Positions 24,394-48,234 of a stretch of 64,000 bases of DNA are shown here, in pieces. The notes under the pieces were generated by a model, which saw only the letters and a list, made by a program, of their open reading frames with translations, ran no database searches and had not been told where the DNA came from. The DNA lies in assembly GCA_035501655.1 (NCBI GenBank), contig DATJVU010000033.1, positions 298,770 through 362,769 of the forward strand, given 5' to 3'. This DNA is from Candidatus Solibacter sp. (GTDB taxonomy: Bacteria > Acidobacteriota > Terriglobia > Terriglobales > Acidobacteriaceae). Each line of letters begins with the position of its first letter. Positions within the stretch are counted from its first letter, which is position 1. A program made the position numbers and the translations under genes.

Positions 24394-24603
24394 GGGTTTC
24401 GATTTCACTTCCCACAACGAAAATGTGGGTGTCTCGCTCTTGCGTTTTTCAAGGGCGGGCACGATGCTGCTTGTGCCACGAGATTTCGGCGGATTCAAAA
24501 CCTTGCGCTGTCGGCGGCACTGTACCCACGTCTCGCAAATTCGGCGAGACGTGGGGCACCCACATCACTTTTGTTCTCGCGAAATCGAAGACTGGGCTGG
24601 GGC
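24394..24603 (+). repeat. about 210-bp dispersed repeat, copy 1 (TGTGGGTG..CTCTTGCGTTTTT..GGGCGGGCACGATG..GATTCAAAA..TGGGGCACCCAC..GAAATCGAAG)
   Basis: Direct repeat of 25668-25897 (which has one extra internal segment). The two bracket the CDS at 24872-25645. Confidence 0.8.
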
Positions 24604-24663: not shown

Positions 24664-24693
24664 GACGCGGGCGGGGGCGCCCGCGCCACATCT
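24664..24693 (+). repeat. REP-like hairpin GACGCGGGCG-GGGG-CGCCCGCGCCACATCT
   Basis: 30/30 identical to 26193-26222. The GCGGGCG/CGCCCGC stem is the same as in the hairpins flanking the RAYT gene. Confidence 0.85.
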
Positions 24694-25667: not shown

Positions 25668-25897
25668 GGTTTGATTTTTCTTTCCAGTGACATATATGTG
25701 GGTGCCCCGCTCTTGCGTTTTTGGCAAGAGCCTGCCCTGAGCTTGTCGAAGGGGCGGGCACGATGATGCTTGTGGCGGTAGATTTCTGCGGATTCAAAAT
25801 CCCACGCTGTCGGCAGCACTGTTCCCAGCCTTCGCAAAAAACGCGAAGACTGGGGCACCCACTTCATCTTTGTTTCATCGAAATCGAAGGCTGGCCG
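25668..25897 (+). repeat. about 230-bp dispersed repeat, copy 2
   Basis: Direct repeat of 24394-24603. Confidence 0.8.
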
Positions 25898-26078: not shown

Positions 26079-28895
26079 ATGCCCCACGAACTCCCAAAAG
26101 CTTATGAGCCGGGCGCGATTGAAGCGCGCTGGGCTGAGTACTGGATCAAAGAGAAACTTTTTTCCGTCGCTACGCCTCCGGCTGACGCCGGGGACGCGGG
26201 CGGGGGCGCCCGCGCCACATCTGCGTCCGCACAACCTGTGTTTTCGCTGCTGCTGCCGCCGCCGAATGTGACTGGCAATCTGCATATGGGGCACATGTTC
26301 GAGCAGACACAGATGGACATTATTGTGCGCTGGCATCGGATGCGGGGATTTTTGACGTTGTGGCTTCCGGGCACCGACCATGCGGGCATTGCGACGCAAT
26401 TGATGGTGGAGCGGCAACTGGCGTCGGAAGGCAAGAAGCGCCGCGACCTGGGGCGCGAGAAATTTATTGAGCGCGTGTGGGAGTGGAAGAAGAAGTACGG
26501 CGGAAATATCACCGACCAGATGAAGCGGCTGGGCGCGTCGGTCGACTGGGATCGCGAATATTTCACGATGGATGAAAACTTGTCGCGGGCGGTGCGCGAA
26601 GTTTTTGTCCGGCTGTATGAAGAAGGGCTGATCTATCGCGGGAAGTACATCGTGAACTGGTGCCCGCGCTGCGAGACGGCGATCTCCGATCTCGAAGTGA
26701 AGCATGAGGATGTGCCGGGGAAGCTGTGGGAGATTCGTTATCCCGTGATCGGGACGCCGGCGGATAAGCCAGAGTTTATTACTGTCGCTACCACGCGGCC
26801 GGAGACGATGCTGGGCGATACGGCTATCGCGGTGAATATAAGAGACGAGCGCTACACGCATCTGCACGGCAAGAAAGTTTTGCTGCCGCTGATGGAGCGG
26901 GAGATTCCGATCATCACCGACGAACTGGCGCAGCCGGAGTTTGGCACGGGCGCGGTGAAGGTGACGCCGGCGCATGATCCCAATGACTTTCAGGCTGGAC
27001 TGCGCAACAACCTGCCGCAGATTGAAGTGATGGACGAGAACGCCCGCATGAATCAGAACGCGGGCAAGTATGCCGGGCTGGATCGCTACGAAGCTCGCAA
27101 GCAGGTGCTCGCCGATTTGGAGGCAGGGAATTTTTTAGTTGGGACGAAAGATCACACGCTGCCACTCGGCAAGTGCGATCGCTGCGCCACGGTGGTTGAG
27201 CCGCGGCTGTCGACGCAGTGGTTTATCAAGATTGCGCCCATGGCGAAACGCGCCGCCGACGCGGTCCGCAGCGGCGAGATTACTATCGCGCCAGAAAACA
27301 ATCAGCAAATTTATCTGAACTGGATGGACAACATCCACGACTGGTGCATCTCCCGCCAACTCTGGTGGGGACATCGGGTGCCGGCTTGGCATTGTGCTTG
27401 TGGGGAGATTGTGGTGGCGCGCGAGGCTCCGGCTGCGTGTGGGAAGTGCGGTGGGGCGGTGGAGCAGGATGCGGATGTGCTGGATACGTGGTTTTCTTCG
27501 GGGTTGTTGCCGTTCACTACTTTGGGGTGGCCGGAGAAGACTCGCGATCTGGAGGTTTTTTATCCGACGGCGCTGATGATTACCGGGTTTGACATTTTGT
27601 TTTTCTGGCTGGCGCGGATGATCATGTTCGGCTGCCATTTTATGCGGGGGCATGAGCAGGATCCGGCGATTAAGGCGTCTAGCGGATGGAGTGAGCGCAA
27701 GGATGACGCGGTGCCGTTTCGGCGGGTCTACATTCATGCTTTGGTGCGGGATGCGGACCGGCAGAAGATGTCGAAGACTAAGGGGAATGTGGTCGATCCG
27801 CTGGACATTATTGCTCGCTTTGGAACCGACGCGACTCGGTTTACGCTTGCGGCTATGGCTGCGCCGGGAACCGATATTGCGTTTAACGAGAGTCGCACGG
27901 ATGGGTATCGTGCTTTTGCTAACAAGATTTGGAATGCGGCGCGGTTCATGTTTATGAATGTGGACCGGATCGCGGACCGATCTCCGTGGACTCCGATTAA
28001 GGCAGATTCCGAAATCCTGCATGTTGGTGTTGGTGGTGTTAAGACGGTTGCTCTCGAAGACCGCTGGATTCTTTCGCGATTCAACCGCGTTGCAGCCGAC
28101 GTGAACGATGCGTTGGCGACTTATCGTTTTCACGAAGCGGCGAATCGCATCTACGATTTTTTCTGGGGCGAATTTTGCGACTGGTACTTAGAGTTGATCA
28201 AGCCGCGGCTTATGAACGAAGGGGGCTCTGCCAGGGCTGAAGCTAGCGTTGCGTGTTCTAATCTCGTCAACTTGTTTGAGTCATCGCTGCGCCTTCTGCA
28301 CCCGATCATGCCGTTTATTACGGAAGAAATCTGGCATGCGATGCAAGAGAATAAAACTTCAATCAAGTCCATCGCGTTGACGGCTTATCCGCAGGCCGAT
28401 GAAAAGCAATTTGATCTGGCCGCTGAGACCGAGATGGCGATTTTGCAGGATCTGATCGTGAGCGTTCGGAACTTGCGCGCGGAATTGAAAGTCGAAACCA
28501 AGGCCAAGGTGCCGATCGAAATTTTCGCACACGAGCCCGCGATTCGCAGCCTGATTGAGCAGAACCGCGGCGCGGTGGAGCGGCTAGCTAACGTTGAAAG
28601 TATCGCGTTTGCAGGGGGATCGTTGACCAGCAAGGCTGGCGCGCGCAGCACGGCGCGCTTCGACGTGCATGTAATCTATGAGCGCAAGATTGATGTTGCG
28701 GCTGAGTGCGAGCGGTTGAAGAAAGAGCTGGAGAGAATTGAGAAGGGGATGACGAACGGGCAGAAGCAGCTTAGCAACGAAGGCTTTTTGGCAAAGGCTC
28801 CGGCTGCGATTGTGGAGAACCTGCGCAAGCAGCATCAGGAGTTGGTTGTTTTGCAGGAGAAAACTTTGAGCAAGATGAAGGAGTTGGGTTGCTGA
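26079..28895 (+). CDS. valS: valine--tRNA ligase
   Basis: ORF 26064..28895. [13 protein letters not shown] (HIGH), KMSKTKGN (KMSKS) and a C-terminal coiled coil. ATG 26079 preferred. Confidence 0.97.
26193..26222 (+). repeat. REP-like hairpin embedded in frame in valS (encodes [10 protein letters not shown])
   Basis: Identical 30-mer to the intergenic 24664-24693. Lies in the variable N-terminal linker before PPPNVTG. Confidence 0.8.
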
Positions 28896-47653: not shown

Positions 47654-47678
47654 AAGCACGCAGGTTATCAGAGAACCG

Positions 47679-48234
47679 TGTGGTGGCGGGCGACTCGCCC
47701 GCGCAGTCAAGCAGCAGCAACCAACGCAGCGTCCCACCAAAGCCAGCGACATAAGTCCCAACGGTCAGCCAGTCGGGCCCGCACCGGATTCTGCAAAATG
47801 TAATCGACTTTCCCTCGCAAGCACTCGCATCCGCGCAGCACATGATCAAATGACTCGTCCTGCCAGACACGGCCGGTGCGTCCGAGAGCTTCGTTAATGC
47901 GATGCGCCGATTCGCTCTTGATGGTTCGAGTGATCTCGGGAATCGAGATCAGGCCTTTCGCGTCGCTAAGAGGGAGACAAATCAAGTGCACGTGATCGGG
48001 CATGACCACGGCCGCGTATAGGGTGTATTTGCGCCCGTTGGCCCTGAGGCAGGATTCTAAGGCCAGGGTTCGGGCGACGTCTGGCAGATGCCACCTTTGC
48101 CAAGTTGAATATGTGATGAATAGAGATCGATTTTCTTTTTGATAGTGCGGAAGATAGCGGCGGTAGTGATACTTTCTCTGCACTCAAAGCAGAGTAGCAC
48201 CGAAAGGCGCGCGGGCGAGTCGCCCGCGCCCACA
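47679..48234 (-). mobile_element. RAYT unit: REP-associated tyrosine transposase gene flanked by inverted REP hairpins
   Basis: GCGCGGGCGAGTCGCCCGC occurs on the plus strand at 48209-48227 and on the minus strand at 47686-47704, bracketing the gene. Confidence 0.8.
47707..48183 (-). CDS. REP-associated tyrosine transposase (IS200/IS605 Y1-like, RAYT)
   Basis: 158 aa. YRRYLPHY, HUH motif PDHVHLICLP, WQDESFDHVLR, catalytic-Tyr region VDYILQNPVRARLA. GTG start. Confidence 0.85.
   Translation of the reverse strand: MQRKYHYRRYLPHYQKENRSLFITYSTWQRWHLPDVARTLALESCLRANGRKYTLYAAVVMPDHVHLICLPLSDAKGLISIPEITRTIKSESAHRINEALGRTGRVWQDESFDHVLRGCECLRGKVDYILQNPVRARLADRWDLCRWLWWDAALVAAA

Follow-up and report, generated by a model that had tools for sequence, protein, structure and literature searches.

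The window analysed here is a stretch of 64,000 nucleotides from the genome of Candidatus Solibacter sp., a member of the Acidobacteriota (contig DATJVU010000033.1). It contains an open reading frame (ORF) for a valine-tRNA ligase, valS, and, further downstream, a gene for a small transposase that resembles the RAYT type (REP-associated tyrosine transposase). Short G+C-rich hairpins of the repetitive extragenic palindromic (REP) type are found at both genes. One of these hairpins lies inside valS and is read in frame as part of the protein, and another is located in the intergenic region upstream. The valS hairpin is very probably a copy of a mobile REP family restricted to the genus, and most likely a translated passenger that is neutral or nearly so.

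The hairpin in valS and its absence from congeners

The 30-mer GACGCGGGCGGGGGCGCCCGCGCCACATCT occurs at exactly two sites in the window, 24664–24693 and 26193–26222, both on the plus strand, and no further site was found there with up to three mismatches allowed. As the original prediction had stated, the copy in valS is identical to the intergenic copy and is read in frame; two matches to the 30-mer were found in 0 of 100 dinucleotide-preserving shuffles of the sequence. The 30-mer consists of a 26-nt REP core with two additional bases on each side (Table 1). These additional bases, GA and CT, are common to the two copies, while in the family as a whole GA is found in 7 of 57 copies and CT in 4 of 57. 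Judging by these flank frequencies, the two neighbouring copies may be donor and recipient. The intergenic copy lies 5’ of a hypothetical gene, and the reading frames across it score negative in the codon model described below.

The valS ORF matches the ValRS of Thermus thermophilus (1GAX) with an E value of 1e-72 across the first 207 residues, the usual ValS Pfam families are present in homologues of its product, and the genome contains no other valS-class match. Since the sole valS-class gene carries the insert, the enzyme with the insert must work. The REP is almost certainly translated. The insert is positioned after the N-terminal helix region and ahead of the PPPNVTG/HMGH strand, where it adds about nine codons (AGGGARATS); the linker as a whole exceeds the short form of most congeners by 13 residues. 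Related ValS proteins were taken as the 120 best matches in a collection of 5.8 billion proteins (77–84% identical, none from the same species). The linker from KLF to PPPNVTG has 31 residues in this ValS versus 18 in 85 of 119 of these relatives, and in a HMMER alignment to the Thermus enzyme a 15-residue gap opens exactly here. Both results bear out the earlier placement of the insert in a poorly conserved linker, and the gap in the 1GAX alignment suggests that the insert forms part of a loop. An AlphaFold2 model of ValS made with 60 homologues was not used: the mean pLDDT (predicted local distance difference test) was 51.5, the pTM (predicted template modelling score) was 0.38, and residues 1–106 were all below 50, because the alignment was too shallow (77–84% identity).

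The valS hairpin has an 8-bp G+C stem and a GGGG loop. Its predicted folding energy as single-stranded DNA (ssDNA) is −13.2 kcal/mol (z scores of −3.1 and −3.9, one per strand), and a fold prediction for the surrounding mRNA yields this hairpin as well. A second small mRNA hairpin, CUCCGGC-UGAC-GCCGGGG, is predicted at 26176–26193, formed by the extra linker codons adjoining the REP upstream; congeners with the short linker do not have these codons.

Table 1. Features of the window discussed in the text
Feature	Position	Strand	Basis or remark
valS, valine-tRNA ligase, 938 aa, intact ORF	26079..28895	+	1GAX match, Pfam families of homologues
REP core within valS, 26 nt, CGCGGGCG-GGGG-CGCCCGCG-CCACAT	26195..26220	+	equals family consensus at each position
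30-mer in valS, core with GA (5’) and CT (3’), ValS residues 39–48	26193..26222	+	
Intergenic REP copy, same orientation as valS copy, 1.5 kb upstream	24666..24691	+	
RAYT-like Y1/HUH transposase ORF, 158 aa, motifs PDHVHL and DYILQNP	47710..48183	-	PF01797
REP variant flanking the RAYT, plus strand reads GTGTGG-TG-GCGGGCG-ACT-CGCCCGC-G	47678..47703	-	
REP variant on the other side of the RAYT, inverted, CGCGGGCG-AGT-CGCCCGCG-CCCACA	48210..48234	+	

The valS gene was readable in 21 sampled congeners, and all 21 lack the REP, which confirms the expectation that the segment would prove lineage-specific. In 18 of the 21 the linker has the short form PTPPPGETRPVF, and the other three have an unrelated 5-residue extension, so that the valS copy of this genome (G000) is common to no sampled congener. 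Distant ValS proteins do not have these residues either, and the position is a gap in the Thermus ValRS, so the outcome named in the original prediction as refuting it was not observed. The ancestral GAGACGCGTCC corresponds to GGGACGCG-(27 nt)-TCC in G000, with a further linker difference of 12 nt. The junction is ambiguous over GCG (GACGCG / ... / GCGTCC), and could reflect an insertion of 27 nt or, alternatively, a duplication of 3 nt; no repeat of this ambiguity was found at the other copies.

Several of the 120 related ValS proteins, each denoted here by a P number, have the element in the same linker. The REP-coded sequence AG[GE]GAR[AT]T is present in the same frame in P0006, P0019, P0031 and P0104. 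In P0049 the linker reads GGRGRPPH, which is the same element in a different frame, placed before the ancestral GAG ACG CGT and not after it; because the insertion point is different, this was an independent insertion event. P0004 encodes a variant hairpin with a fully complementary stem and has the upstream GCT GAC GCC GGG in common with G000, and the linkers of P0007, P0008 and P0093 contain SVRATQ, from a sister family. REP-coded linkers were confirmed at the DNA level for five uncultured relatives. The P0019 copy is identical to that of G000 at 25 of 26 core positions, although its valS gene is only 77% identical. The closest known ValS, P0002 (84% protein and 79.6% nucleotide identity), is without the REP. 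The ValS linker is thus permissive for such elements, which have entered it on more than one occasion. No matches to valS-specific 27–28-mers from both sides of the insert were found in two metagenome scans. The linker of P0093 reads DKSVRATQARATQARATQ, and part of the REP-derived peptide has apparently been amplified there in tandem.

A REP family within and between genes

The genome (6.0 Mb, 41 contigs, 58% G+C) contains 57 copies of the family with at most four mismatches to the 26-nt core, counting both strands. The core consensus is CGCGGGCG-[G/A/T]GGG-CGCCCGCG-CCACAT. Its borders are sharp – core positions other than the first base of the loop are kept in 49–57 of the 57 copies, while the ten bases on each side carry at most 0.26 bit per position, meaning that the flanks are unrelated. 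Seen from the opposite strand, the element begins with a GTGG head followed by the hairpin, and this head (CCAC on the plus strand of the consensus) is kept in 54–57 of 57 copies at each position. A second and smaller subfamily, with 10 copies, has the same stem, but its loop is AGT and its tail G(C)CCACAC.

The family is restricted to the lineage. Of 24 sampled congeners, 22 contained the 26-mer with at most two mismatches (between 1 and 92 copies per genome), as against none of the 16 genomes sampled from the neighbouring family; a control with the reversed pattern gave 0 hits in 41 genomes. In a scan of public genomes that sampled one genome per prokaryote species, nearly all exact copies among the matches listed were in Acidobacteriota, Acidobacteriaceae, Terriglobales and Candidatus Sulfotelmatobacter metagenome-assembled genomes (soil, peat).

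At least 23 of the 57 copies (40%), including the one in valS, are in frame inside real genes confirmed by Pfam families or motifs, so the genome scan suggested with the original prediction did reveal other in-frame copies. For each copy, six frames were scored by a codon model trained on the long ORFs of the genome, and the host ORFs were then translated; several copies just upstream of likely start codons were left out of the intragenic count. A Pfam scan of 20 host ORFs besides valS found all 20 to be recognisable genes. These encode GpmI, UvrA, LeuRS, GltX, MnmE, homoserine dehydrogenase, Fpg, RsmB, a PBP2-type transpeptidase, KpsF, a xanthine-dehydrogenase-type molybdoenzyme, an ABC exporter, RNase H, a threonine-synthase-like PLP (pyridoxal phosphate) enzyme, LarC, ThyX, LipB, a phage portal protein, agmatine deiminase and LolE. 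An additional host, ParB, was identified from conserved motifs, with the copy between the N-terminal motif and the core. Three of the hosts are tRNA synthetase genes (valS, leuS and gltX). In many hosts a single domain match spans the insert, as in iPGM_N (83–331), Ni_insertion (4–432), TrmE_N (17–178, a 117-position profile) and Fapy_DNA_glyco (1–167, 117 positions).

None of the six frames through the element contains a stop codon, and the frames are not used equally. Among 22 verified copies the counts are 8, 1, 0, 8, 4 and 1 (chi-square p = 0.003). The frame translated as xVARAPSPA is used 8 times, ARAGAPAPH and MWRGRPRPR once each, RGRGRPRHI never, and the two further frames 8 and 4 times, so that two Gly/Ala/Pro-rich frames are favoured. 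This is the bias that would be expected of a selective filter against inserts that are Arg-rich or contain Trp or Cys. Intragenic copies have a mean of 1.41 mismatches to the consensus versus 1.23 for the other copies (p = 0.5); they are neither older nor younger than the remaining copies.

Two hosts have additional features. The gene for homoserine dehydrogenase contains two inverted copies 104 nt apart, C40:119030 (-) and C40:119134 (+), in frame in the NAD-binding domain; the pair resembles a REPIN (a REP doublet forming a hairpin) and adds about 50 residues. The copy at C38:458507 makes up the last 10 codons of lipB, followed by the stop codon, and its ATGTGG head is in frame with the downstream ORF for a 2-oxoacid dehydrogenase E1 component. 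REP heads might occasionally be a source of start codons.

Proposed mobilisation, possible linker turnover and other explanations

There are four Y1_Tnp (PF01797) ORFs of 158–188 codons in the genome. The window ORF, which contains the HUH-type motif PDHVHL, lies between inverted hairpins whose stem and tail are those of the valS element but whose loop is AGT. RAYTs have been described with this arrangement, which strengthens the earlier label of the valS hairpin as REP-like. An orthologue in the sampled genome G015 is 74% identical and has the same two hairpins at near-equal distances. In other congeners, more distant paralogous RAYTs (ca. 50–57% identity) stand between hairpins of separate sister REP families with GTGG-type heads, and it appears that every RAYT clade of the genus is paired with a REP family of its own. 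A close homologue of the window RAYT is present in 7 of 7 genomes with at least 19 copies of the family versus 8 of 18 low-copy genomes (Fisher p = 0.02, a value that overstates the association since the genomes are related).

A second repeat family was also seen, GTGGGGCACCC... beside a GTCTCGC...GCGAGAC hairpin, at 24500–24600 and 25700–25880 in the window and at C10:423400–424300. On contig C10 it flanks another Y1_Tnp gene, and it appears to be translated (GGAPSV, DGAPTV) in KpsF, the phage portal protein and ParB.

ValS is one of several proteins in which the same site has been occupied repeatedly, and at every site examined the presence or absence of the REP varies among congeners. The UvrA loop just before LRFAQRFEC (C39:87929–88615) has a basal length of 198 nt and an occupied length of 216 to 261 nt across congeners. 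It contains the 26-mer family in G000, G017 and G019, a GCGGGCAGGAGTGCCCGC-TCCACA family in G007 and G002, and a GACGGACAGGAGTGTCCGTCCCACA family in G001, G016 and G009. The GltX interdomain linker and a loop of the LeuRS anticodon domain show a similar variety, including unrelated GTCAT-type repeats. In several congeners the GltX linker contains peptides such as VIPSEARN, which resemble the GTCAT-type repeat family. The REP in gpmI (C23:391349) is common to four species. Between G000 and G011 it is identical at 30 of 30 bases, against 77% identity over 231 aligned bases around it (P ~5e-4 under flank-like divergence), and the ancestral gpmI site, CGCGGGCAGGCGCTGGCCACCAT, was already similar to the element.

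The favoured explanation is that the valS hairpin is one copy of a REP family restricted to the genus. A RAYT, belonging to the HUH/Y1 transposases of IS200/IS605 type, would mobilise such elements in the form of ssDNA hairpins, and the leading candidate in this genome is the RAYT of the window with its two inverted flanking hairpins of like stem and tail. The element is lodged in the variable linker that separates the N-terminal helix of ValS from the first strand of its catalytic fold. Selection would retain only those insertions that preserve the frame and lie in loops or linkers where they read as small, flexible residues. Such selection for tolerable inserts would explain both the number of host genes and the dominance of two of the six frames. 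The effect on the enzyme would most likely be neutral or nearly so. Of the two fates originally proposed for the insert, tolerated or exapted, the first is supported, while nothing was found that favours the second.

A number of observations weigh against this explanation. The flank logos of the copies give no target motif and no target-site duplication can be defined, with only a mild bias in the flanks (C is avoided at −1 and T is preferred at +1). Net insert size varies, from +39 nt in this valS to +27 nt in P0006 and +15 nt in gpmI of G011. Most copies are singletons, whereas REPINs mobilised by RAYTs usually take the form of inverted doublets; the only inverted pairs in the family are C2:14942/14995 and the pair in homoserine dehydrogenase (C40:119030/119134). 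The valS copy is itself a singleton, and its nearest neighbour, 1.5 kb off, is in direct orientation. The window RAYT is only narrowly above the Pfam cut-off (23.5–23.9 bits versus 23), and no RAYT is flanked by the GGGG-loop form – the flanking copies belong to the AGT-loop subfamily, so that this RAYT is a putative mobiliser of the GGGG-loop copies. No close relative offers a clean empty site, the nearest ValS being 84% identical in protein and 79.6% in DNA. A fixed insert length was ruled out as a property of the family by the net gains of 39, 27 and 15 nt and by the 18–63 nt gained in the UvrA loop.

Part of this evidence could also be read as recombination or gene conversion, by which copies were spread or kept alike without fresh transposition and occupied or look-alike sites were overwritten repeatedly. 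The gpmI copy, conserved well beyond its flanks at a site that was already element-like, is in keeping with this, as are the P0019 core in its diverged gene and the P0004 linker, which has the upstream bases of G000 with a variant, fully complementary stem. Independent insertions at permissive hot spots would also account for these data, however, and P0049 differs in both frame and insertion point, three unrelated REP families occupy one UvrA loop, and a tract of 26 nt is short for homologous recombination. Recombination or conversion in place of fresh transposition is considered unlikely. The gpmI identity and the valS copies of P0019 and P0004 may reflect conversion or re-insertion refreshing sites that were already occupied, or selection on the hairpin. 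A broader and decidedly tentative proposal is that intragenic REPs are more than inert remnants and that the linkers of housekeeping proteins (ValS, LeuRS, GltX, UvrA, GpmI) are repeatedly rewritten, with occupied sites kept identical to a genomic master copy by RAYT- or recombination-driven replacement, in which case REP turnover would be a source of steady change in the linkers and loops of essential proteins.

It is quite improbable that the insert has gained a function, whether at the nucleic-acid level (an mRNA or ssDNA hairpin that tunes translation, the stability of the mRNA or events linked to replication) or in the protein, where a peptide loop could alter the behaviour of ValS. The hairpin is stable, intragenic copies are no more decayed than the others, and the same linkers are occupied in several lineages, all of which a function could account for. 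But the host proteins are unrelated, copies occur in both orientations and in all but one of the six frames, congeners differ in the presence of the element at each examined site, and the closest ValS does without it. The 81-nt mRNA context of the valS hairpin folds no better than its shuffles (z = −1.3), and the hairpin begins 116 nt past the start codon, outside the initiation region. No evidence of a gained function was found for the valS insert. As for the identity of the valS and intergenic copies, the 58% G+C of the genome and the GC-rich codons of Gly/Ala-rich linkers might suggest coincidence or convergence, or an intergenic copy derived from valS, but the shuffles, the ca. 57 dispersed copies with the same 26-nt borders and the empty reversed-pattern control leave these accounts with a negligible probability; the copy number and the controls refute them.

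As a copy of a mobile family, the valS hairpin belongs to a clean and well-populated case of mobile hairpins in the essential genes of one genome, in hosts – soil and peat Acidobacteria – that are abundant and little studied. For annotation, it means that Gly/Ala/Arg-rich inserts of this kind are derived from repeats and should not be taken as lineage-specific functional motifs. The insertion sites mark positions at which enzymes tolerate added residues. Given the apparently clade-specific REP families of the RAYTs, the genus also provides natural material for the study of how REPs move and of whether intragenic copies evolve in concert with the rest of their family.

Comparison with known repeat families

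Rickettsia palindromic elements (RPEs), reportedly described by Ogata and colleagues in 2000, are said to be inserted in frame in genes that remain functional, mostly at surface positions of the proteins. RPE-1 is about 100–150 bp long and encodes tens of residues, and RPEs are not known outside Rickettsia. The elements here are like RPEs in being tolerated in-frame palindromes. RPEs are longer and probably unrelated in sequence to the present unit of 26 nt and about nine codons. Judged by size and host phylum, membership of the present element in the RPE families is implausible.

REPINs, a term reportedly introduced by Bertels and Rainey in 2011, are associated with RAYTs and are said to be inverted doublets by definition. 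The present family probably belongs to the same class of RAYT-associated repeats, but has only 2–3 pairs among its 57 copies, and the valS copy is not one of two inverted REPs close to each other that would move as a unit. In the IS200/IS605 insertion sequences (IS), the Y1 enzyme (TnpA, of the HUH/Y1 type) recognises a subterminal hairpin on ssDNA. The chemistry would be the same here, with a transposase of the same Pfam family (PF01797); there is no IS, however, the hairpin alone would move, and no target tetra- or pentanucleotide is detectable beside the copies. Miniature inverted-repeat transposable elements are 70–300 bp long with terminal inverted repeats (TIRs) and target-site duplications. 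The unit here is 26 nt long, nothing beyond its borders is conserved, and no duplication of the flanks was found.

The comparison with RPEs made in the original prediction thus holds as an analogy only, and a closer precedent is found in intragenic REPs of the GTAG type (PMC3733652). Di Nocera, De Gregorio and Rocco (2013, BMC Genomics, PMC3733652) divided prokaryotic REPs into two superfamilies with GTAG and CGTC heads, and noted that the GTAG head is mutated to GTGG in most GTAG-20 units of Opitutus terrae. They described RAYT genes flanked by REPs (REPtrons) and found REPs in known genes of several species, including many replication and repair genes such as uvrA and, in three species, tRNA synthetase genes; the inserts were thought to be probably in flexible linkers or loops. 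In their survey most REPs were intergenic, and more than half of the intragenic inserts were dimers or groups. For Koribacter, only tyrosine transposases flanked by TIRs were reported.

The present family has much in common with GTAG-type REPs such as the GTAG-20 units of O. terrae – a G+C-rich hairpin with an 8-bp stem, a 4-nt loop and a GTGG head at one end, a RAYT-like ORF between inverted hairpins of the same stem and tail, and copies in genes, including uvrA and tRNA synthetase genes, that are read as linker or loop residues. It differs in that it belongs to the Acidobacteriota (Terriglobales), has another sequence, is ca. 40% intragenic and consists mostly of singletons, and in that the copies flanking the RAYT are an AGT-loop variant of the abundant GGGG-loop form. 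With at least 23 of its 57 copies inside genes, the family is not predominantly extragenic, and intragenic units are a listed feature of GTAG families (PMC3733652). No description of REPs of this kind in Acidobacteria was found in the literature. Intragenic REPs are already documented in other bacteria, and what is new is the presence of this family in a soil acidobacterium.

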